From positions 1-64,000 of the IMG/VR virus record IMGVR_UViG_3300036781_000236: 64,000 nucleotides of DNA; one strand, given 5' to 3'. Below the pieces are notes generated by a model, which had not been told where the DNA came from, did no database searches, and saw only the letters and a program-made list of their open reading frames with translations. Positions within the stretch are counted from its first letter, which is position 1; every line of letters begins with the position of its first letter. Source of the DNA: a virus. The position numbers were made by a program, and so were the translations under genes. Below, in pieces: positions 19,949 to 28,394 of the stretch.

Positions 19949-20260
19949 CGCGGTGTTCTCACCGATCAGCCACCACATCGCCTCGATCAGATCGATGAGA
20001 CCAACAGCATCGTCGCGCTGCTCGCGCACCTTGCGGTACTTCGCGTGAGCGCCACCGACAGGGTCGATCAGTTCCAGCATGATCGTGTCGATGTTCTCCA
20101 AGGTCTGCTTCGGACCCGTCTCTCCGGACAGTTCGTCGGCTTCCGCGATCACGTCGGGCGACACGGACTGGCGCATCTTGAACTTCTCCCCGCCGAGCTT
20201 GAACTCGACAGGCTTCTTGTGGCGCAAACGCTCGTGGCGTTCCGCATCGAAATCACGCAT
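19856..20260 (-). CDS. Tail assembly chaperone G
   Basis: Position; WLIGENTARPT followed by low-complexity tail; RBS AAAGGA. Confidence 0.8.
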   Translation of the reverse strand: MRDFDAERHERLRHKKPVEFKLGGEKFKMRQSVSPDVIAEADELSGETGPKQTLENIDTIMLELIDPVGGAHAKYRKVREQRDDAVGLIDLIEAMWWLIGENTARPTVPPSPSTTGRRRTSTRSTAGSASKARA

Positions 20261-20287
20261 ACGTACTGTCCTTTCGGTTCGGGAACA

Positions 20288-20623
20288 TCATGTGTTAGCC
20301 GCGCTGAGAGCGGGCCTGAGATATGGGTAGGCAGGAGCGCGACCAACGACACGTCCGCCACGCACGACGTTATGACCTTCCTCAACGTAAATGGCGTAGG
20401 TCACGTTCGATCCGATGTCTACGTATGGTGAGGTTGAATCCTCACCCTCCTGCCACGTAATAGACTGACGCAACCGACCCGTTTTCACGTTCGGGCCAGG
20501 ACGGCCGGTGGCGTACTGCTTTGCCGCTGTCTCCACACGGATCGCGCGCATCCGTAGGTCAGCCATGATCGGCCCCTTCACCAACTCCCGGAAGCCTGCT
20601 TCATCCCACGACACATCCATCAC
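20288..20623 (-). CDS. HK97 gp10-like tail completion protein
   Basis: VKTGRLRQSI...SNVTYAIYVEEG...PYLRPAL. Confidence 0.85.
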   Translation of the reverse strand: MMDVSWDEAGFRELVKGPIMADLRMRAIRVETAAKQYATGRPGPNVKTGRLRQSITWQEGEDSTSPYVDIGSNVTYAIYVEEGHNVVRGGRVVGRAPAYPYLRPALSAANT

Positions 20624-21165
20624 GATCCTCCCGTCTCTGGGTACGCCGGGATCTCGACACGGAACTGGAGTTGGAAGCCGCCGATGCCGCCCTGCGTCAG
20701 CACGCTAATGGCGGGGTCGAAGAACATGGCACGTGTCTTCGCAGGCGGGAACAGCAAGCCATTGCGCTTCAGGTAGGCAAGATGGTTCCAGATCGCCCAC
20801 ACGTCGTCATCGACAGTCTTCGCGGCGGCGCTCATCGCAGCCGGGGTCGGTAGCTTCACGCCCTGCCCACCAACGACCGGGACACACCGCAACGTCGTGA
20901 CGGTGAACTGCACCAAGCGGAGCGCGATGTTCATTCCCTCCCGTGCCCCAGGCTGCAAAGGGGGCTGCAACGGCGCGGTATCCGCCAACGCCGCCGCACC
21001 GACATGACAAGTGAGCTGAGCGCAGTCCCAAACGGGCAGGCCAGGGCTGACGTAGAAACGAGGCTGCGCCCCCGCGTCCGTCGAAGCGACAGCCTCATGC
21101 GCAGCAGCAAGCAACTCTTCAGCCGCCGCGTACAGGTCACCGGGTCCCGTGCCCACCTCAACCAC
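20620..21165 (-). CDS. Tail terminator-like protein
   Basis: WDCAQL, LRCVP, QGGIGG pattern; position. Confidence 0.7.
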   Translation of the reverse strand: MVEVGTGPGDLYAAAEELLAAAHEAVASTDAGAQPRFYVSPGLPVWDCAQLTCHVGAAALADTAPLQPPLQPGAREGMNIALRLVQFTVTTLRCVPVVGGQGVKLPTPAAMSAAAKTVDDDVWAIWNHLAYLKRNGLLFPPAKTRAMFFDPAISVLTQGGIGGFQLQFRVEIPAYPETGGS

Positions 21166-21518
21166 AGTGGGCCTCCGCGACTAGTCGCGGTCGAGGTTTC
21201 GCGCGACCAGGTGGTGCGACAGCACGCGCACGAACCACCGGCCGCGCCGACGCACGAGCAGCCACCGTGCTCACCTGCGGCTGCACCGTCACCGGACGTG
21301 CGCGACGCGACACATGCGCCAGAGAAAGCCGCCTGCGGGCCTTCGAGTCACGGCACGCAGCCAACGCATCTCGCGTCAACGCACGCGCGTTCAGGCCACG
21401 ATGCGAAGGACTGCCAGTGCAGAACCACGCACGGAGATACGCACCTGCCGCCTCACCTGTGATCGTGTGGTCTTCCACCGACCCGTAGCCTACACCGCCA
21501 CACGGTCAGCGTCCCCTT

Positions 21519-21546
21519 AAAAACAAATCTCCCCGTGAGGGGAGAT
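21519..21546 (-). terminator. Intrinsic terminator
   Basis: ATCTCCCC-TCAC-GGGGAGAT followed by TTGTTTTT on the minus strand. Confidence 0.9.
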
Positions 21547-21830
21547 AAGTTTTCGAGAGACACGATTGCCTACGTGCAAGACCTAGACCCTGGCTTCGTC
21601 AATGAGCGCTTGGTCGGTCTGCCTACCTCTCGGGGGAAACCTCCCCTCCGCCGGATGGTGTCCGCTGGTCACGGCCCAAGGATCGTGGCGAGCAGCTTGC
21701 TATCGCTGCCTCCGCGCATCCCTTCACTCCCTGCTCGGTAGCACCTTCCCTCTCCCCACCAACGGGTCAGCCGGTGGGCGTTGGGTCAGTCACTCTCTGC
21801 CTGACCCGGAGAGCGACCCCGAATCCGACT
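21519..21830 (-). ncRNA. Putative ~310-nt structured non-coding RNA of unknown class
   Basis: Bounded by consensus promoter and intrinsic terminator; no credible same-strand ORF; multiple G-U-containing stems and 8-nt complementary loops. Confidence 0.75.
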
Positions 21831-21835
21831 CAGCA

Positions 21836-21864
21836 ACCATATAGCGGTATGTCAGGCTTGTCAA
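21836..21864 (-). promoter_or_regulatory. Promoter TTGACA-17-TATGGT
   Basis: Perfect -35, exact spacer, box-like CCGCTATATG at -10. Confidence 0.85.
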
Positions 21865-22067
21865 GCCGTGGCGTGTACACGGTCACGGAACGCACCTCGC
21901 GACTCGCTCATCGGCAGCGGGCGAGGAACGACTGGGAGCCTGTAAGGACGAGGACGACCCCATCCCCAAGGCTGCACCCACGGGTACACGGACGGCACGG
22001 GGATCACGCCCATACCTCCGCACGTCGGACACGTCCGGCAGCAACAACCGCACCCGACGATCATCAT
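21861..22067 (-). CDS. Small Cys-rich hypothetical protein
   Basis: ATGA-coupled to VWA gene; GCGCCCRTCPTCGG. Confidence 0.45.
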   Translation of the reverse strand: MMIVGCGCCCRTCPTCGGMGVIPVPSVYPWVQPWGWGRPRPYRLPVVPRPLPMSESRGAFRDRVHATA

Positions 22068-22807
22068 CGGTTCGTCAGGTGGTCGAGGAGTCCCGACTCG
22101 GTCGGCTTCACAGCCTCACCTGCGACACCCATGACCGCTGCGCCAGCGTCGCCCATCACGTCAACAGACGACATTGATACGGACGACCTCAGGGTGCTTG
22201 TTGCCATGCTCACCGATGCCATCGTCCGAGCCACGCTGTCGCTGCTCGCGGCCATGAAGTAGCCGTTCTGGCCGGAGTACCCGACATTCGCCATCGTCCC
22301 GACGTACTCGCTGGACTGGCCGAGACCGAGGTACACGAACGTCCAGTTCCCCTTCGCCTCGTACTCCCGCACCAGCGCAGCCAGTGACTCGGCGGTGTAG
22401 TCCGTGGACATGTTCTCCGCGCCATCCGTCATGGTCACGACAAGCACCTTCGAGTCCTGCTTCCCCTCACGGGCGACGCGCGCTTCCAGATCCTTCACCG
22501 TGAACGCGATGGCGTCATACAGCGCTGTGCCACCACCAATCCGGTACGTCTTCCCGGTCAACTGCTCGACCTCAGCGAGCGGCGCACCGACGTACACCTG
22601 CTCGAACTCCGTGTCGAACAGCGTCAGCGACAACAGCGTGTCGCCGTCCTGCTCCCGCAGGTCGTTCACGTACTCGTTGAACCCGTCGATCACGGACCCC
22701 GCGAGGTGGCCCATCGAGCCAGACTTGTCGAGGATCATCGCGACCGCGAGATCCGTCGATGCCTTCTTCTTGCGCCGAGGCTTCGCAGGCGCGCTCGTGC
22801 TACTCAT
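22064..22807 (-). CDS. von Willebrand factor A (VWA) domain protein
   Basis: MIDAS ILDKSGSM, GGTALYDAI, MTDGAEN, WTFVYLG; start at MSSTSAP. Confidence 0.9.
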   Translation of the reverse strand: MSSTSAPAKPRRKKKASTDLAVAMILDKSGSMGHLAGSVIDGFNEYVNDLREQDGDTLLSLTLFDTEFEQVYVGAPLAEVEQLTGKTYRIGGGTALYDAIAFTVKDLEARVAREGKQDSKVLVVTMTDGAENMSTDYTAESLAALVREYEAKGNWTFVYLGLGQSSEYVGTMANVGYSGQNGYFMAASSDSVARTMASVSMATSTLRSSVSMSSVDVMGDAGAAVMGVAGEAVKPTESGLLDHLTNR

Positions 22808-23084
22808 CGGTTGGTACCTCACCTTCGGTTGTGGTTCGGGACGCGAACGACGCCACAGCCTGTGTGAGCGATTCCAACCTGTCCGTAGATACTGGACGCG
22901 TGTTCGCTTCGATCTGGCACAAGTACGCAGGGCTGATGCCCGCAGCAGCAGCCACAGAGTTCTGACTCGCGCCAACCGCGAGGCGCGCGTTGCGTATCAC
23001 GCTGCCGGATGTGCTCTCTAGCCGTTCCAGCTTTTTGCGCTGCGCGGCCAGATCGAGGAGTTCAAGCAGAGGGCGTTCGTTCAT
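22800..23084 (-). CDS. XRE-family HTH regulator
   Basis: IRNARLAVGASQNSVAAAAGISPAYLCQIEANTR. Confidence 0.85.
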   Translation of the reverse strand: MNERPLLELLDLAAQRKKLERLESTSGSVIRNARLAVGASQNSVAAAAGISPAYLCQIEANTRPVSTDRLESLTQAVASFASRTTTEGEVPTDE

Positions 23085-23092
23085 TTAGCGAA

Positions 23093-23121
23093 ATGCTAAA
23101 GCAGACGGCCCTGCGTGTCAA
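23093..23121 (-). promoter_or_regulatory. Promoter TTGACA-17-TAGCAT, near-leaderless for the XRE gene
   Basis: Consensus elements; ATG 8 nt after -10. Confidence 0.8.
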
Positions 23122-23126
23122 GTTAG

Positions 23127-23199
23127 TCGGGGTGACAGGGTTCGAACCTGCGACCTCTTCGTCCCAAACGAAGCGCGCTACCAACTGCGCCACACCCCG
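23127..23199 (-). tRNA. tRNA-Pro(UGG)
   Basis: Cloverleaf; CTTCG-TTTGGGA-CGAAG anticodon arm; GGTTCGAAC T-loop. Confidence 0.93.
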
Positions 23200-23203
23200 A
23201 AGG

Positions 23204-23274
23204 CTGCGGGAGAAGGACTCGAACCCTCACAACCTGATCCAAAGTCAGGCGTCCTGCCGTTAGACGATCCCGCA
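23204..23274 (-). tRNA. tRNA-Gln(UUG)
   Basis: CCTGA-CTTTGGA-TCAGG; GGTTCGAGT T-loop. Confidence 0.92.
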
Positions 23275-23279
23275 ACGTG

Positions 23280-23702
23280 TTACGGCAGCCGGGCGGGCTG
23301 CTGGAACACTGGCGGTTGCTGATGCTCGGACACTGCGCGAAGTTTAGCACGGCGCTCTCGCTTGTAGCATCTCATGTATTCGTTCTTCTTTTCTCTACAC
23401 AACTTACACTTGCAATATCTTTTCCCTGTCAATCCACCACCATGTGGCACCGATTTCTCAAGCGAAGTTTTCTTCTTGTGACAACACTGACATAGAAGTT
23501 GGCATTTATGTAGTTCGTCAACGAATCTTTTATCTGAAAAACTCGTTCCTTTACCAATCGTAAAGGATTTTGTTGATGGATCGATATGATCGAACTCTAG
23601 ATTTTCTACCGACCCACATCGAACACACTTTCCTCCCATGTGTTCGATGGCAGCAGCACGGCGCGCGTGATACCTGTTGAGCATGTAGGACGCCATGTCC
23701 AT
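23280..23702 (-). CDS. HNH endonuclease
   Basis: CVRCGS...LEFDHIDP...KCQLLCQCCH; low GC; inside the tRNA cluster. Confidence 0.9.
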   Translation of the reverse strand: MDMASYMLNRYHARRAAAIEHMGGKCVRCGSVENLEFDHIDPSTKSFTIGKGTSFSDKRFVDELHKCQLLCQCCHKKKTSLEKSVPHGGGLTGKRYCKCKLCREKKNEYMRCYKRERRAKLRAVSEHQQPPVFQQPARLP

Positions 23703-23718
23703 GACCCAAGTATATCTG

Positions 23719-23754
23719 GGAAAGGAGCATGCGCTGCCACTACGCTACGGCTCC
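23719..23754 (-). pseudogene. tRNA-like 5' half (acceptor strand, D-arm, anticodon-stem strand) upstream of the HNH
   Basis: GGAGCCG-TA-GCGT-AGTGGCA-GCGC-A-TGCTC; partner GAGCA found at ~23323-23327 but no canonical T-arm. Confidence 0.45.
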
Positions 23755-23758
23755 GAGG

Positions 23759-23831
23759 TGCCCCGTCACGGATTCGAACCGTGGTGACCGGCTTGAAGGG
23801 CCAGCGTCCTTGACCGCTAGACGAACGGGGC
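23759..23831 (-). tRNA. tRNA-Glu(UUC)
   Basis: CTGGC-CCTTCAA-GCCGG; GGTTCGAAT T-loop; C at position 33. Confidence 0.9.
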
Positions 23832-23837
23832 AAGCAG

Positions 23838-23910
23838 CGCCCCGGACGGGATTCGAACCCGTGCATCCGCCTCGACAGGGCGGCATCCTAGGCCACTAGA
23901 TGACCAGGGC
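23838..23910 (-). tRNA. tRNA-Asp(GUC)
   Basis: CCGCC-CTGTCGA-GGCGG; GGTTCGAAT T-loop. Confidence 0.92.
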
Positions 23911-23911
23911 A

Positions 23912-23983
23912 AGCGGGAAGAAGGATTCGAACCTTCGACCATCGGCTTAGGATGCCGCTGCTCTTCCACTGAGCTATCCCCGC
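23912..23983 (-). tRNA. tRNA-Arg(CCU)
   Basis: GCGGC-ATCCTAA-GCCGA; GGTTCGAAT T-loop. Confidence 0.88.
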
Positions 23984-23991
23984 GCGACATG

Positions 23992-24030
23992 GACGCTATC
24001 ACGCCCGCGTGAGAGGCCAGCTATACGAAG
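23992..24030. promoter_or_regulatory. Palindrome + 4 bp + CCAGCTATACGAAG; on the minus strand gives extended -10 TGA-TAGCGT ahead of tRNA-Arg
   Basis: Directly visible between tRNA-Ser(CGA) and tRNA-Arg. Confidence 0.75.
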
Positions 24031-24117
24031 CGGAGGAAGTCGGGATCGAACCGACACAGCCCTTACAGGCCATCGCCCTTTTCGAGAGGGGTAAGCACGC
24101 CAGCCTTGCGTTCCTCC
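24031..24117 (-). tRNA. tRNA-Ser(CGA)
   Basis: CCCCT-CTCGAAA-AGGGC; long variable arm; GGTTCGATC T-loop; atypical D-arm. Confidence 0.82.
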
Positions 24118-24121
24118 AAGG

Positions 24122-24733
24122 CGGCGGGAGTGGGATTCGAACCCACGCACCCCGAAGGGCCTAGCGCGCTAGCAACAGAAGTCTCTCTAAGAGACACACT
24201 CAAGCGTGTAATCATTGATCTTACGAACTACCAGAAGATTTCGTGTAATCTCAGCGTGGTGATTCGGACAAATAGCAAACATGTTACCTACCTCGTATTT
24301 ACCGCCGTCTTTACCAGGAACAAGCCTATGGATATCAAAGGTTTTAGAATACTCGCACCCTTCAATCATGCAATATGTGAAGAGAAACCTTTCTGACAAA
24401 AAATCTAAACGGCGTGTTGAATCATTTCTTGCTGGACGTTCTCTACCTCTTGTTGGTCTTTGTCGCTTAGCGACACAACTCTTACTACAAAACCGTGACT
24501 TTTTTGAAAAGGGCGAAAACTCCTTATCGCAATTCTCACATCTCTTCGTTGGGAGACGGCGTCGCAACCCATCGCATGCCTTTGAGCAATAGACATTTCG
24601 GCTAATGACTAACTGACTAGGACGCCTATAAATAGGCGTACTACATACCGAGCACACAGTATTGGGTGTTCTCATCGTCTGCTGTGCCATAGTGTTTCAG
24701 CCGTGCCCTCTTGAACCACTTGAGTACCCCGCC
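24122..24733 (-). tRNA. tRNA-Ser(GCU) interrupted by a ~526-bp HNH-encoding insertion
   Basis: 5' half 24702-24733 GGCGGGGTACTCAAGTGGTTCAAGAGGGCACG; 3' half 24122-24175 TTGCTAG-CGCGC, variable arm, GTGGG-TTCGAAT-CCCAC-TCCCGCC-G; acceptor stems match. Confidence 0.8.
24187..24690 (-). CDS. HNH endonuclease with N-terminal CxxC...CSxxC zinc-finger repeats
   Basis: Two CxxC/(Y/F)CSKxC repeats; DIHRLVPGKDGGKYEVGNMFAICPNHH; low GC. Confidence 0.88.
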   Translation of the reverse strand: MAQQTMRTPNTVCSVCSTPIYRRPSQLVISRNVYCSKACDGLRRRLPTKRCENCDKEFSPFSKKSRFCSKSCVAKRQRPTRGRERPARNDSTRRLDFLSERFLFTYCMIEGCEYSKTFDIHRLVPGKDGGKYEVGNMFAICPNHHAEITRNLLVVRKINDYTLECVS

Positions 24734-24828
24734 GAGAACGGCTATGTGGTGCGGGTACTCATGAGCGGCACATAGTCGGGATGGTACCACGCTTGCGGTG
24801 CCCCACCCCTATGTGTAGGGTAGCAACC

Positions 24829-25680
24829 ATGACACGAAAAACAGTCAACCGCGATAAGCTGGAGGCATGGCTTGACGAGCAAGGTATCGTCGCTGACGTT
24901 ACGTTGCTGTTCGAGAAGCCACCGAAGGCACCACGCTACGCAGAACGGAACGCCGAAGCCGCACGTCTCTACACCGAAGAACGCCTGACGCTCCAGGAGA
25001 TCGGTGACCGCTTCGGTGTCACCCGAGAATCCGTGCGGCTGTGGTTGAAAGCAGCGAACGTACCGAAGGTTGCGGTGCGGTCCCGGACCACGGAGCGCCG
25101 TAACCTGCGGATCGCCGCGCTGGTGGAACGCCGCGACGAGATGCGCGCGATGTACTTCGAGTGCGGTAACACCCCAGCTTTCGCGAAGCGTCTCGGTGTC
25201 GGACCAGCTATCGCGAAAGGGGTGGTAGACGCGGTGATCGGACGGGATGAGTGGCGGTTAGCGAAAGTGTGCGGTGCTCATCGCGTCTCCGACGACCTCC
25301 TCAGTGGCTATCTCCGTGACGCGGCGGCGCAGGTAGGCCAGGATGTGCCTCTCACCTACAAGGCTTACGACGAGATCGCGGAAGCCCGTGGGTGGCCCAC
25401 ACACCAGACGTTCGAGTTGAGGTGGGGAGGATGGCGCGACGCCTGTTCCGCGAACGGTGTGCGGTGCAACGACGTTCGACGTTCCTACACTCGTAAGTGG
25501 CCCGCGGAGAAGTGCTGGGAGTGCGTCCGCGGACTCGCCGTCGAAATCGGTCGTGTCCCCACAGTCACCGAGTACGAGCTGTGGAGCAAGGGACATCCAG
25601 ACCGTGCGTCGGTTGCGATTGTGCGTCGCCGTATCGGAGGATGGAAGGACGTGATCCGTACCCTCAGCACCGAACTGTGA
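24829..25680 (+). CDS. HTH (sigma-70 region 4-like) protein with homing-endonuclease-associated repeats
   Basis: LTLQEIGDRFGVTRESVR; two P(L/T)TxxxY...R(W/I)GGWxD repeats; leaderless promoter TTGCGG-17-TAGGGT at 24793-24821. Confidence 0.75.
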   Translation: MTRKTVNRDKLEAWLDEQGIVADVTLLFEKPPKAPRYAERNAEAARLYTEERLTLQEIGDRFGVTRESVRLWLKAANVPKVAVRSRTTERRNLRIAALVERRDEMRAMYFECGNTPAFAKRLGVGPAIAKGVVDAVIGRDEWRLAKVCGAHRVSDDLLSGYLRDAAAQVGQDVPLTYKAYDEIAEARGWPTHQTFELRWGGWRDACSANGVRCNDVRRSYTRKWPAEKCWECVRGLAVEIGRVPTVTEYELWSKGHPDRASVAIVRRRIGGWKDVIRTLSTEL

Positions 25681-25683
25681 ACG

Positions 25684-25714
25684 TCACGCGGGCGTGACAG
25701 TCCTGCTATACGAT
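25684..25714 (+). promoter_or_regulatory. Palindrome + 4 bp + CCTGCTATACGAT; -10 TACGAT for tRNA-Leu with palindrome in place of -35
   Basis: Directly visible; tRNA begins 8 nt after TACGAT. Confidence 0.75.
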
Positions 25715-25722
25715 GCTGGTTC

Positions 25723-25805
25723 GCGCGAGTGGTGGAACGGCATACACGATGCGCTCAAAACGCATTGCCCTTCGGGGCTTGAGGGTTCGAATCCCTCCTC
25801 GCGCA
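25723..25805 (+). tRNA. tRNA-Leu(CAA)
   Basis: ATGCG-CTCAAAA-CGCAT; variable arm; GGTTCGAAT T-loop. Confidence 0.93.
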
Positions 25806-25890
25806 CTTAGGTAGAATGGGGCCAGCGGGCGCGAACCCGCCGACCCCGATACGGGGCCACATCACAACCACGACGAAGGAGTAGCCCCGA

Positions 25891-26427
25891 ATGCAGAACA
25901 CTACCGGAGGACTCTGCGAGTGCGGGTGTGGACAGCCAGCTCCTCTTGCTAAGCGGACAGATAGGCGTCAGGGGACTGTCAAAGGAGAGCCACAACGCTA
26001 CATACGTGGTCACAGTATGAAGTCTGGACCCGACGATGTACCTCGTGAGTGTGCTTGTGGGTGTGGAAAACTTACTACCCTGAGAAACGGTCATGCCAAG
26101 AAGTTCGTTCACGGGCATAACTCAGAAGTACGAAATATTACAGAGGCAGACTACACCGTAACCGAAACTGGATTCGGTACACCTTGTTGGATTTGGAATC
26201 GAACCACTAGCGAGGGGCGCGGTAAAGTACAGATTGACAAGAAGAAGACATACCCATATCGTGTCTTGTACACAATGCTAGTCGGAGAAATACCGCAAGG
26301 CTATGTGCTACATCATCTATGTGAGAACCCGCTATGTGTCAACCCCGAACATCTCCAACCAATGACTCAATCAAAACATATTAAACTACATCGAATACCT
26401 GGGCATAACCGAAGATCAGATTCCTAA
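25891..26427 (+). CDS. HNH endonuclease with CxCGCG repeats
   Basis: CECGCG, CACGCG, PCWIW, LHHLCENPLCVNPEHL; RBS GAAGGAG; low GC. Confidence 0.9.
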   Translation: MQNTTGGLCECGCGQPAPLAKRTDRRQGTVKGEPQRYIRGHSMKSGPDDVPRECACGCGKLTTLRNGHAKKFVHGHNSEVRNITEADYTVTETGFGTPCWIWNRTTSEGRGKVQIDKKKTYPYRVLYTMLVGEIPQGYVLHHLCENPLCVNPEHLQPMTQSKHIKLHRIPGHNRRSDS

Positions 26428-27681
26428 ATCGTTCATTCCTAATAGTGATGCGCAACTAGCATCGCCGCTAGTATTACCGATTGGGCGACTATAACCCTGT
26501 ACGTCTGGACTCCAAACTGCGGCGCGCATCTTCGCGCGCGTTCGGTTGTACGCCGACAGGAACGCGTCAACTGCGACCAGACCAGTCCCAGTGTTGGAGA
26601 AGAAATCAGCGAGCAACTCTCTCTCCACCTCGATTCCTTGCCGGGTGACCTTGGTGACGCCAGCGGGGAGCACGCAGTCCTCACCGTCACCGCACGCGAG
26701 GTACAGCTGACACGCCATCTGCTTCGCGGCCTGCAACCCCAACGGTGGCGGCGGGACACCCCACAAGTAGTCCACCGAGAACGTGCCTGGCTGGTCATCG
26801 TTCAGATCGAGCGCCTGGCATGACGGCCAGAATCCTTGGATGTACGTGGAGTCCGGTGTCGCTCCAGGGAGGCTCATGCGGGTCAGGTACCGCCACTCAT
26901 CGAGCCGGTAGCAGTCGGGGTCAAGCACCTCACCGTTGATCGTCACCTTCAAGATTTGCCGTACGGGGTAGCCGGACAAGCGCACACGGCTAAGTCCGTT
27001 GCAGCCCATCTGCTGACCGTTCTCGTTCCACCATCCCCACCCTGCCCCGTAGCCGCCGCCCCACGCGTACCCGCCCGCGTAACCACCGGGCAGCCACAGC
27101 CACGGCCCTAGCCCGGACGCCCACGAGCACCCGCACGCCTGGTTCATCGGCCGGACGTGAGCGTGAGTCAACCCTGGGAACTGACGACCGGACATTTGGT
27201 ACAGCAGCATCCCCGCCTCCACGGCGACCATGTCCCACACCGCCGCGTTATCCGCGTACGTCGCGGAGCAGCACGCGGCTGCTTCCTGCCCCGTGATCCA
27301 GTTCACCGTTGGCCCCTCGACAGGCATCGGCGGAATGGTGCTGACGGGGCCATACGGGGTGTACACGTAGCCTTGCAACTGGAACTCGTACACCGTCACA
27401 CCGTTCACTTCGGTGACGTTCACGAACCCAGCGGACCCACCGAGATAGAGGGACGCCCAGTTCCCGTAGGCGGCGCTAACGGCCGTCTCGACCTGCGCCT
27501 GCGTAGATCCTTCCGCCAACAAACCCACCTTGTCGGTGCCCCACCCTGTCGTAGAACCACCCTCGAAGTACGCGCACACGATCCACCCGACGGTGCCCTC
27601 TGTCTGTTCGCTGAAATACTGCTCCCACGTCGGGGTGGCTAGACACGACTCGTACGGTGGGTAGGGAGGCAGGACGCTCAT
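26416..27681 (-). CDS. Head-to-tail adaptor with N-terminal extension
   Basis: LYQMSGRQF, WPSCQAL, GVPPP...CVLPAGVTKVTRQGI, TGLVAVDAFL...N. Confidence 0.8.
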   Translation of the reverse strand: MSVLPPYPPYESCLATPTWEQYFSEQTEGTVGWIVCAYFEGGSTTGWGTDKVGLLAEGSTQAQVETAVSAAYGNWASLYLGGSAGFVNVTEVNGVTVYEFQLQGYVYTPYGPVSTIPPMPVEGPTVNWITGQEAAACCSATYADNAAVWDMVAVEAGMLLYQMSGRQFPGLTHAHVRPMNQACGCSWASGLGPWLWLPGGYAGGYAWGGGYGAGWGWWNENGQQMGCNGLSRVRLSGYPVRQILKVTINGEVLDPDCYRLDEWRYLTRMSLPGATPDSTYIQGFWPSCQALDLNDDQPGTFSVDYLWGVPPPPLGLQAAKQMACQLYLACGDGEDCVLPAGVTKVTRQGIEVERELLADFFSNTGTGLVAVDAFLSAYNRTRAKMRAAVWSPDVQGYSRPIGNTSGDASCASLLGMNDLGI

Positions 27682-27737
27682 AGGGTCACATGGTACGGGC
27701 GGGGCCAGCCAACGCTAGCCCCGCCCACACGACCTTC

Positions 27738-28394
27738 TTAGGTCGTTGCCTGCGTCTGCCAACCGCACTCGGCGGTCGGGATGGTGGTGTCGTAGAACCA
27801 CCCTCCGGTCGCAGCGATGGCCTGCGGCTGATCACCGAAGATCCCCTCACCCCAGTTCGGGTTCGACCGCGTCCACGCCGTCAGCTTCGGCTGGTTGAAG
27901 TCCATCTGCAACGAGAAGTCGCTCATCTGCCAGTACGACGACGGCCAGATGTACCGGGTGTACGGGAAGTCCGTCACCTGATGGTCGTCCTGCCAGTTGT
28001 CCTGCCACGCCTCGATAGCGACGTTCGGCTGCGTCGGGGCGGCACAGTCAAGCTGGTTCGGCCAGTTCATGCCGATGGCGGCACCGTCCTGCATGATCGA
28101 CGTTCCGCCCGTCAGGATCTCTTCCAGGCCCGGCTCCACCAGACCCTGGTCAAGCTCAAGCGTGAAATACTTGAGCTTGTCGTACCCGTGGTAGAACGCG
28201 ATGATGCAGTCACACCCGCCGATCAGCGGCTTGTCCACTCCGGCCTCGATAGCAGGCTTAGCGGAAAGCATGATCGAGTTGTCCGACACGTACACGTTGT
28301 TCGGTCCCGGAGAAGGGTTCCCGAGACTATCAAGGCGCGTGATACGAACCGCACAGATTTTGATCTGAGCAAAGCACTCAGCAGCAGCAGCCAT
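27738..28394 (-). CDS. Major tail protein
   Basis: AVRITRLDSLG...SNPNWGEG...PTAECG pattern; RBS AAGGAGG; followed by a hairpin at ~27697-27726. Confidence 0.75.
   Translation of the reverse strand: MAAAAECFAQIKICAVRITRLDSLGNPSPGPNNVYVSDNSIMLSAKPAIEAGVDKPLIGGCDCIIAFYHGYDKLKYFTLELDQGLVEPGLEEILTGGTSIMQDGAAIGMNWPNQLDCAAPTQPNVAIEAWQDNWQDDHQVTDFPYTRYIWPSSYWQMSDFSLQMDFNQPKLTAWTRSNPNWGEGIFGDQPQAIAATGGWFYDTTIPTAECGWQTQATT

Follow-up and report, generated by a model that had tools for sequence, protein, structure and literature searches.

Free-standing homing endonucleases are a known kind of element, and several described systems place nuclease genes or introns in or beside tRNA genes. [quoted passage not shown] In Anabaena, the HNH homing-endonuclease gene all8564 is conserved beside the long tRNA arrays of cyanobacteria and was proposed to spread them (PMC8421152). 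Group I introns occur in the anticodon loops of bacterial tRNAs (reviewed in PMC3984707), and in trans or collaborative homing a free-standing endonuclease serves a neighbouring ORF-less intron, as for T4 mobE/I-TevIII (PMC2790892) and F-CphI (PMC6083498). The tRNAs of Lak megaphages contain introns described as "enigmatic", one insert being itself tRNA-like (Devoto et al. 2019, PMC6784885). Archaeal bulge-helix-bulge introns and split tRNAs are tRNA genes in pieces that are reassembled by proteins (PMC4090602, PMC3218864).

Protein-coding genes offer a further comparison. The nrdA gene of phage Aeh1 is split by mobE, an endonuclease gene placed directly in the host gene with no intron or intein, and the two protein fragments reassemble into a working enzyme. 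We know of no equivalent rescue for a tRNA broken in the anticodon loop.

The window analysed here is a 64,000-nt stretch of DNA from a soil phage (positions 1 to 64,000 of IMG/VR virus record IMGVR_UViG_3300036781_000236). ARAGORN, run with introns allowed, finds a tRNA-Ser(GCU) gene on the minus strand at 24120-24733 that measures 88 nt once a 526-nt insert is removed. A first-pass annotation of the sequence had described a tRNA-Ser(GCU) with well-preserved halves, split at the anticodon arm by an HNH ORF, and an insert of about 526 nt made up of a 504-nt ORF and about 11 nt on each side; the rebuilt tRNA and the positions of the insert (24176-24701) and the ORF (24187-24690) confirm both statements. 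The insert separates the 5' strand of the anticodon stem (GCACG) from the loop (UUGCUAG), and the junction may slide by one base because a G is present on both sides. The 5' part (24702..24733, minus strand, 32 nt, canonical positions 1-31) carries the acceptor 5' strand, the D arm and the anticodon-stem 5' strand. The 3' part (24120..24175, minus strand) carries the loop, the 3' stem strand, the variable arm, the T arm, the acceptor 3' strand, the discriminator G and CC; position 24122, at which the first-pass annotation began, is the discriminator base. Once rebuilt, the tRNA has an acceptor stem of 7 bp (one of them G-U), a D stem of 3 bp, a long variable arm and a T arm. That the two parts belong together is borne out by the predicted fold of the 614-nt precursor as a whole, in which the G7-U pair of the acceptor stem has a probability of 0.58 and each of the other six pairs one of 0.99. 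ARAGORN finds no second tRNA-Ser(GCU) in the 88-kb phage genome. An intact tRNA-Ser(CGA) gene (24030..24117, minus strand), for which Rfam gives only tRNA-Sec at 32 bits, below threshold, lies 2 nt downstream of the split gene and outside the insert.

We consider it probable that this locus records a recent, ribozyme-free insertion of a homing endonuclease that inactivates a dispensable tRNA. The first-pass annotation had offered a recent inactivating insertion among its readings, and an insert-free allele, a relative that lacks the tRNA, the foreign GC content and the position of HNH family members in or beside tRNA-Ser genes all favour it. That an assembler joined the insert into the tRNA is exceedingly improbable. 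As repeats, transfer RNA genes are prone to mis-joins, and the tRNA bins collect many unrelated contigs; however, an 87,878-nt contig of the probable source run spans 22000-27500 with 0 differences and an even depth of 19.3, both junctions are base-exact and the two halves fit one tRNA. The split of tRNA-Ser(GCU) is no assembly artefact. A junction scan, in which candidate halves were joined at 2350 junction pairs per locus and passed to ARAGORN, was noisy (357 '???' calls for the window) and shows that halves can be assembled, not where the breakpoints lie.

The insert (24176..24701, minus strand) is a mobile element with neither target-site duplication nor deletion, as judged from the ARAGORN intron call and from the uninterrupted allele described below. 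Its ORF (24187..24690, minus strand, 167 aa) matches the phrog_1271 HNH endonuclease with an E value of 3.8e-14 and the Pfam HNH model weakly, at 14.3 bits against a cut-off of 21.4 bits. The start homologous to that of relatives is probably the ATG at 24675. The protein has 118 homologue clusters (best identity 57%) and comprises two N-terminal zinc ribbons and a C-terminal HNH motif; profile comparison with the PDB retrieves the HNH domains of pyocin AP41/S2, McrA and colicin E7 (E 0.0019-0.6). The catalytic His/Asn/His residues (H121, N136, H144/H145) and the zinc-binding Cys residues (C107, C112, C141) of the beta-beta-alpha-metal HNH motif are invariant in an alignment of 31 sequences, and the window ORF keeps all 24 of the 24 invariant columns. 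Judged by these residues, the ORF is an intact zinc-ribbon HNH endonuclease of the free-standing kind. A tblastn search of phages returned four records (two phages, each filed twice) at 32% identity and was uninformative. The C-terminal extensions of some homologues (e.g., P0003 and P0027) read, by eye in the alignment, like translated tRNA.

The base composition of the insert is foreign, with a GC content of about 0.42 (0.40-0.46) against about 0.62 (0.58-0.65) in the flanks. Neither ATG of the insert is preceded by a promoter or an SD-like motif; relatives of the ORF, by contrast, have GGAGG-like sites or TTGACN-17-TATAAT promoters. ARAGORN finds no spare tRNA inside the 526 nt. A 6-bp hairpin (24181..24195, minus strand; ensemble probability ~0.96) holds the TAG stop codon in its loop and is followed by UUCUGUUGCU, which makes it weakly terminator-like. 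It is listed by a terminator scan whose 4 sites, against 1.8 +/- 1.5 in shuffles, are within chance, and it is absent at the matching place in those sequences of relatives that were inspected. The 11 nt past the stop codon (AGAGACUUCUG) sit where relatives have the first bases of tRNA-Ser, a possible remnant by resemblance only. A microhomology between the GCU at the start of the insert and the anticodon was rejected as inconsistent with the observed join.

Relatives of the phage were seen solely via metagenome runs, and parts of the window that lack cover in runs X2 and X3 were not used as evidence. In X2, an independent soil run, a 291-nt contig joins 24176 to 24705 with GC between them, which yields an uninterrupted tRNA-Ser(GCU) of the same length. 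The contig comes from a relative of the phage, since it continues into the phage-specific spacer and tRNA-Leu gene; it is the only contig seen with the empty site, at a depth of 3.9 and with the likeness minimum set to 80. A single difference separates the two tRNAs: at 24704, X2 has G29 and the window A29. The anticodon stem of X2 is perfect (GCGCG/CGCGC), whereas that of the window (GCACG) has an A-C mismatch 2 nt from the insert. An X3 contig runs from 23949 to 25684 with only 48 letters between, without both tRNA-Ser genes, the HNH gene and ORF 24781-25680, all of which are therefore dispensable. That ORF (24781..25680, plus strand) encodes a homing-endonuclease-associated repeat (Pfam HNH_repeat, 8.5e-10) and an HTH domain (Sigma70_r4) and is a second presence/absence element adjoining the split tRNA; in place of this ORF, the 291-nt X2 contig has 26 other letters between 24761 and 25684. 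The HNH insert is thus a presence/absence polymorphism at a fixed site between related genomes. Searches of described phages added nothing: blastn of 24000-24900 against 50,697 phage records gave no match, that of 20000-27900 gave nothing beyond tRNA-sized matches (in 571 records), and in viral_contigs an exact 40-mer of the tRNA 3' half and head-tail adaptor peptide patterns each gave 0 matches.

To place the insert within its family, 57 loci were fetched, among them 48 distinct ones with the CPNHH motif; the proteins of the surveyed loci share 35-52% identity with that of the window. Transfer RNAs are present in 42 of the 48. A same-strand tRNA starts 60-100 nt past the CPNHH codons in 26 loci and so abuts or overlaps the ORF end, family stop codons lying up to 65 nt within the next tRNA. 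Of these abutting tRNAs 19 are tRNA-Ser, compared with 57 of the 226 tRNAs in all loci (binomial p 4e-7). We conclude that this widespread HNH family habitually lands in or beside tRNA-Ser genes, within tRNA clusters.

Several family members also sit among broken tRNA genes. In loci L035, L039 and L043, an HNH gene and a complete tRNA-Ser lie between two orphan tRNA parts that match each other, the 5' part upstream and the 3' part downstream. The window insert shares with these cassettes a homologous nuclease and a tRNA split in or next to the anticodon arm; the replacement tRNA is absent. L044 has the HNH gene fused to a tRNA-Ser(GCU) 3' part that starts at the anticodon loop. The 5' part of a tRNA is duplicated in L026 and L060, and direct repeats of 18 nt are present in L015. 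L062 has tRNA halves and no spare tRNA, its anticodon arm being gone, and is in our judgement the only one of the 48 distinct relatives arranged as barely as the window. The window, L044 and L035 share a right-hand junction at the anticodon loop's 5' edge; the tRNA is broken at 31/32 in the window and at about 26/27 in L043. The orphan halves of relatives were picked by eye among the output of a motif script, which includes chance matches. This acceptor-strand script returned 27 rows from 21 sources including the window; those from the window, L015/L019, L026, L035, L039, L043, L060 and L062 were accepted on D-arm-like sequence after the 5' strand. The rows for L011, L027/L028, L040/L041, L046, L054, L061 and L063, and extra rows for L039 (T loop at 2708) and L043 (T loop at 2662), were dropped as chance matches or parts of complete tRNAs. 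Together, these arrangements suggest small zinc-ribbon HNH genes specialised on tRNA-Ser and tightly packed against it, often with a spare tRNA-Ser or a displaced 5' part ("break and replace").

Among the described systems, SegB and the window HNH gene are alike as selfish nuclease genes inside a phage tRNA cluster that are missing in related phages. As described, SegB is a GIY-YIG enzyme encoded between tRNA genes and directed at a T-arm motif, whereas the window gene encodes an HNH enzyme, lies inside a gene at the anticodon loop and belongs to a family that prefers tRNA-Ser, with cleavage putative. Like all8564, the window family combines an HNH gene with tRNA arrays, and L061, a cyanobacterial genome contig, has a family HNH gene in such an array. 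The published account places all8564 upstream of its array and does not describe it as interrupting a tRNA. L060 shows the layout known from collaborative homing, with the HNH gene followed after 32 nt by a tRNA-Ser that carries an ORF-less group I intron. In the window, unlike the published cases of collaborative homing, the target gene houses the nuclease gene and contains no intron.

Group I tRNA introns, as reviewed, share with the window insert the anticodon-loop region, presence/absence behaviour and an association with homing endonucleases. Unlike them, the insert lacks a ribozyme core, its splice-site bases are wrong, and a protein gene that also occurs in relatives outside introns takes up 504 of its 526 nt. 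It is extremely unlikely that a cryptic self-splicing ribozyme, of group I or another class, overlaps the coding sequence, although the insert ends in G, sits in the anticodon-loop region as bacterial group I tRNA introns do, and has in L060 a family member beside a tRNA-Ser with a group I intron. Rfam searches of 4 kb, of 661 nt and of the whole genome gave no match to RF00028 or any other intron at E<=10; the positive control, the 230-nt intron in the L060 tRNA-Ser(UGA), was recovered as group I over the full model (35 bits, E 1.9e-7). At the gathering threshold Rfam reported no intron in 20 loci, and L060 required an E-value search because its 35 bits fall below the family's gathering score of 50, so relatives other than L060 could hide similar sub-threshold introns. 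ARAGORN with introns allowed reports among the relatives only L060, an L039 tRNA-Asp and a spurious call in L044. The minimum free energy of the insert (-137.6) does not stand out from that of 60 dinucleotide shuffles (-135.7 +/- 6.3; z = -0.3). The 5' exon ends in ...GCAC(G) and not in U; wherever the insert is placed so as to leave the 7-nt loop (UUGCUAG) whole, the base ahead of it is never U. Relatives outside any tRNA or intron align with the ORF from end to end, which leaves only 22 non-coding bases. These results agree with the first-pass annotation, which had seen no room for a group I core.

Proteins, rather than a ribozyme, could also make a tRNA from the two halves. The HNH mRNA would be looped out of the anticodon arm and excised by host RNases, and an RNA ligase (e.g., host RtcB) would rejoin the ends, or the paired halves would work as a nicked tRNA. 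Such an outcome is unlikely, although the insertion is exact and the halves intact, the acceptor stem is predicted in the full precursor, the split gene is the phage's sole tRNA-Ser(GCU), a weak sub-threshold 2H/LigT-like domain lies elsewhere in the genome, and unexplained tRNA introns have been reported in Lak megaphages (PMC6784885). The 2H/LigT-like match, at 17.6 bits where the cut-off is 27 bits, is part of a head protein and was set aside. Near-perfect halves and a base-exact insertion are also what a gene that still gave a functional tRNA would show, a point against inactivation. Decoding fails in a tRNA with a nicked anticodon loop, which counts against the two-piece version.

The first-pass annotation had proposed a compact, possibly protein-spliced intron, with pairing of the insert ends (GAA-ACACU with AGUGU...UUC) that would bring the exons together. 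The pairing can be drawn and the stop-codon hairpin is real, but the pairing itself is at chance level: its duplex energy of -6.8 kcal/mol is matched or beaten by 28 of 95 other insert windows and by 421 of 1000 shuffles, and it appears in neither the MFE structure nor the ensemble of the precursor. No bulge-helix-bulge can be drawn at the two junctions, since the unpaired 3 nt and 9 nt face each other on the proposed helix as one internal loop and not as two bulges around a 4-bp helix. The splicing endonuclease, RtcB and RNA ligase families (PF01974, PF01139, PF09414) have no match at E<=1 in the phage, to which this search was confined. The proposed intron is thus unsupported. A 10-bp pairing between the 3' end of the ORF and the D arm was also discarded; sequences of 526 and 88 nt should share a 7-mer about three times by chance alone. 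Two further points argue against splicing: the anticodon-stem mismatch was acquired relative to the intact allele, and the spare tRNAs of the nuclease's relatives would be pointless if the insert were spliced out. Very unlikely, too, is the removal of an endonuclease-only insert at the RNA level, in which the tRNA body would recruit an endoribonuclease and RtcB or a 2H-type ligase and the anticodon loop would be resealed. If true, bacteria and phages would have a protein-spliced tRNA intron, and an mRNA set free from a tRNA precursor would have a natural source. As far as they are described, the Lak inserts resemble that of the window in lying in phage tRNA genes, in their presence or absence between relatives and in the lack of a recognised splicing mechanism; the term HNH does not occur in the main paper (PMC6784885), whose supplements may hold more. 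The archaeal systems, according to the accounts cited above, need a bulge-helix-bulge motif and a splicing endonuclease, neither of which was found in the window or the phage, and the window halves are not separate transcription units.

The tRNA-like ends might instead serve the nuclease mRNA as a processing or stabilising handle, through RNase P and 3' trimming in a tmRNA-like topology. The insert has no SD sequence or promoter of its own, the acceptor stem closes the whole 614-nt RNA, and family ORFs packed against tRNAs, their stop codons as much as 65 nt into the tRNA, hint that expression starts from tRNA precursors. We hold this co-option to be quite unlikely; the case is purely topological, and the arrangement is not conserved (L062, with the anticodon arm gone, is the 1 of 48 that is similarly bare). 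It is moreover compatible with a dead tRNA and would add to that reading and not replace it. Against a dead tRNA, end-processing and even serylation of the split tRNA are conceivable, since the acceptor stem is predicted to form; SerRS does not read the anticodon.

Under the favoured reading, that of a recent inactivating insertion, the HNH enzyme would meet, in a genome that co-infects or recombines, a tRNA-Ser gene without the insert and cut it close to the anticodon loop's 5' edge, and repair of the break would copy or capture the nuclease gene at the cut. The interrupted allele would then be immune, because the recognition site is split. The target need not be the anticodon loop itself, since most relatives adjoin intact tRNA-Ser genes. 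In many relatives the cassette would keep the function by adding a spare tRNA-Ser or a displaced tRNA 5' part. The window copy is bare, having no promoter, SD, ribozyme or spare tRNA, and for this reason the single tRNA-Ser(GCU) gene of the phage has most likely lost its function, so far as the sequence allows a judgement. The nearly intact halves, foreign GC and intact nuclease point to a recent insertion, tolerated, we infer, because tRNA-Ser(GCU) is dispensable in this lineage.

Full-text literature searches found no paper on tRNA-Ser-targeting HNH cassettes or on intron-less nuclease inserts in tRNA genes. Placed in a tRNA gene without an intron that would neutralise it, the window nuclease gene parallels, for an RNA gene, the protein genes split by endonuclease genes, and the locus is a clean natural test of whether such inserts are merely tolerated or somehow spliced. 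If confirmed, cassettes of this kind would drive the gain, loss and turnover of phage tRNA genes.

The virus record is 88 kb long, of which the window forms the first 64 kb; the window has a GC content of ~62% and siphovirus-like head and tail genes. ARAGORN predicts a tRNA cluster on the minus strand (23126-24117), with one tRNA-Leu on the plus strand and, when introns are allowed, a minus-strand tRNA-Ser(GCU) at 24120-24733 that measures 88 nt after a 526-nt insert (24176-24701) is taken out. The insert separates the 5' anticodon-stem strand (GCACG) from the loop UUGCUAG, and holds an ORF (24187-24690) flanked by exactly 11 nt on each side. Once joined, the halves have D and T arms, a long variable arm and a discriminator G, and share a 7-bp acceptor stem, which also forms in the predicted fold of the whole 614-nt precursor (p 0.99 for six of the seven pairs and 0.58 for G7-U). 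One contig from the probable source run spans the region with zero differences, and we regard an assembly artefact as highly improbable. These results confirm the first-pass annotation in its description of a tRNA-Ser(GCU) with two fitting halves, split by an insert that is a 504-nt ORF plus about 11 nt per side.

The ORF matches phrog_1271 (HNH endonuclease; E 3.8e-14), has a weak Pfam HNH match, and has homologues in 118 clusters with a top identity of 57%. All 24 invariant residues of a 31-sequence alignment are present, including two CxxC...C...C zinc-ribbon units and the motif DIHR...GN...CPNHHAE, and a profile built from it picks up HNH domains in pyocins, McrA and colicin E7. Since the relatives begin at the second ATG (24675), the window ORF probably does not use its first five codons. 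GC content is 40-46% in the insert against 58-65% in its flanks, and the two other HNH genes of the tRNA cluster are similarly low relative to their flanks. The window copy has no spare tRNA, duplicated tRNA part, promoter or Shine-Dalgarno sequence; relatives, by contrast, have GGAGG-like sites or promoters. We conclude that the insert belongs to an HNH homing family directed at tRNA-Ser and, unlike most of its relatives, is bare.

Loci encoding relatives (57, numbered L007-L063) were taken from viral, metagenome and genome contigs; five further copies from a protein-only scan (L002-L006) duplicate loci among them. Leaving out eight duplicates and L051, which has no CPNHH motif, 48 distinct loci remained, 42 with tRNAs. 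In 26 of the 48, the ORF end meets or overlaps a same-strand tRNA that starts 60-100 nt past the CPNHH codons, and the stop codons of family ORFs fall between 65 nt inside the tRNA and 12 nt ahead of it. Among the abutting tRNAs 19 of 26 are tRNA-Ser, compared with 57 of all 226 tRNAs in the loci (p 4e-7). The HNH frame runs on into the next tRNA in many relatives among L007-L063, and 5' processing of that tRNA by RNase P would deprive such an HNH mRNA of its stop codon. That the tRNA ends act as a handle in processing of the nuclease mRNA is quite unlikely as an explanation of the split gene, and such a role is compatible with a dead tRNA.

Broken tRNAs occur in several relatives, in cases chosen by eye from script output that included chance matches. 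In L035, L039 and L043, the HNH gene and a complete tRNA-Ser are enclosed by two orphan tRNA fragments with matching acceptor strands, a 5' part on the upstream side and a 3' part on the downstream side; L043 also has a TTGACC-17-TATAAT promoter and the anticodon UGA in both tRNAs. In L026 and L060 the HNH gene is preceded by a copy of the first 18-25 nt of the downstream tRNA, and in L015 the gene is flanked by an 18-nt direct repeat spanning the tRNA start. L062 has tRNA halves with neither a spare tRNA nor a recognisable anticodon arm. L044 combines a promoter, a tRNA-Ser(GCU) and an HNH gene fused to an orphan tRNA-Ser(GCU) 3' part that starts at the anticodon loop. In the window, L044 and L035, the right-hand junction falls at the 5' edge of the anticodon loop.

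Other features were observed at these loci. A tRNA-Ser(UGA) whose anticodon loop is interrupted by a group I intron of 230 nt (RF00028; L060:793-1111, the end of an Anaerolineae MAG contig) follows the family HNH gene after 32 nt, and its first 18 nt are those repeated upstream of that gene; this is the layout of trans/collaborative homing. A full-length tmRNA gene (125 bits; L017:1422-1804, viral contig) lies within a tRNA cluster that also has a family HNH gene. In L039 (653-1070), ARAGORN predicts a tRNA-Asp(GUC) carrying a 328-nt anticodon-loop insert ~900 nt upstream of the family HNH gene. The family is also found, each time with a tRNA array, in a Plectonema genome (L061) and on a contig labelled Thermoplasmatales archaeon MAG (L062), a label that may reflect misbinning of a phage contig.

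Contigs of three soil runs were compared with window positions 22000-27500. A 291-nt contig (depth 3.9) from X2, a run of a different study than the probable source, connects 24176 to 24705 with 'GC' between; contig joints at low likeness can mislead, and the sides here are 51 and 57 letters, including non-tRNA spacer. The X2 allele is the same tRNA gene minus the insert, of equal length and with no duplication or deletion. Its sole difference is G29 for the A29 of the window, so that the anticodon stem is a perfect GCGCG/CGCGC in the intact X2 allele and is broken in the window by an A-C mismatch that lies two bases from the insert. Because the X2 contig extends through phage-specific spacer to the tRNA-Leu gene, also without ORF 24781-25680, it derives from a related phage. 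A contig from a further run, X3, connects 23949 to 25684 through 48 letters, and both tRNA-Ser genes are absent. The X2 empty site and the X3 deletion thus indicate that the segment is plastic and tRNA-Ser(GCU) dispensable in the lineage.

Several neighbouring features were recorded. The adjacent tRNA-Ser(CGA) (24030-24117, minus strand) is an ARAGORN call whose anticodon stem is topped by a C-C mismatch, and for which Rfam gives no tRNA match and only a sub-threshold tRNA-Sec match (32 bits). ORF 24781-25680 (plus strand), replaced by 26 other letters in the X2 relative, encodes an HTH domain together with a repeat associated with homing endonucleases, but lacks a nuclease domain. The tRNA-Leu is followed by a third HNH gene of low GC, of the HNH_3 type (25891-26427, plus strand), and in the X3 relative 1418 other letters replace segment 25807-26493. 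A good-quality tRNA 5' part (GGAGCCG, D arm, UGCUC; 23703-23756, minus strand) lies between tRNA-Glu and a second, unrelated HNH gene (23280-23702, minus strand; phrog_4234). No convincing 3' part follows it, just CGGCUGCC near the HNH ORF end; the pair may be an older, decayed example of the same kind as the split tRNA-Ser(GCU).

A covariance search for introns, as proposed in the first-pass annotation, was run on 4 kb, on 661 nt alone and on the whole genome, and gave no match to a group I or other intron in Rfam at E<=10; as a positive control, the 230-nt insert of L060 was matched by the group I model over its full length (35 bits, E 1.9e-7). The folding energy of the window insert is ordinary (z = -0.3, 60 dinucleotide shuffles), and the 5' exon ends in C/G, not U. 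Because relatives outside any tRNA share homology with the coding sequence along its full length, only 22 bases are left for an RNA function, in agreement with the earlier remark that a group I core has no room outside the ORF. We consider a hidden ribozyme very improbable. The suggested pairing of the insert ends to bring the exons together (-6.8 kcal/mol) proved to be at chance level, being matched by 28 of 95 other insert windows and 421 of 1000 shuffles; it is missing from the predicted ensemble of the precursor and does not form a bulge-helix-bulge. Splicing-endonuclease, RtcB and RNA-ligase families had no match in the phage. A weak match to the 2H phosphoesterase/2'-5' RNA-ligase-like family PF13563 (44351-44644, minus strand; 17.6 bits against a 27-bit cut-off) sits within a 565-aa open frame of the head region (head protein). 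Splicing or two-piece tRNA function via host enzymes would fit the exact insertion and the preserved halves, but is unlikely given the A-C mismatch, the absence of a motif or enzyme for it, and the fact that relatives carry spare tRNAs. The novel options raised earlier, a compact, possibly protein-spliced intron or a tRNA in two halves, are unsupported rather than refuted.

We favor as likely the reading that insertion of a tRNA-Ser-directed HNH homing gene left tRNA-Ser(GCU) dead though nearly intact, in line with the recent inactivating insertion also listed in the first-pass annotation. In the simplest history, the nuclease would break an intact tRNA-Ser(GCU) at the edge of the anticodon loop, and the break would be repaired either with an already interrupted allele as the template or by gene capture, leaving a dead, still nearly intact tRNA gene. 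The cleavage site, the way the gene entered and the loss of tRNA function are inferences from what was observed: the anatomy, the family with its context bias, the missing ribozyme signal and the empty site. Foreign base composition, an intact nuclease and a single nearby substitution suggest that the insertion is recent, and one relative without the tRNA suggests that it is tolerated.

Of the characterised systems, the nearest is SegB of phage T4, a free-standing GIY-YIG endonuclease encoded in the tRNA cluster; it recognises a motif of tRNA genes and cleaves inside them (PMC2330249). Also described are HNH genes linked to tRNA arrays in cyanobacteria (PMC8421152), group I tRNA introns and trans/collaborative homing (PMC3984707, PMC2790892, PMC6083498), and unexplained introns in Lak megaphage tRNAs (PMC6784885). 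Full-text literature searches returned neither a ribozyme-free endonuclease gene within a tRNA anticodon arm nor HNH cassettes with spare tRNAs. The value of the finding lies mainly in the family-level "break and replace" pattern and in the bench-testable case that a bare endonuclease gene in a tRNA offers.
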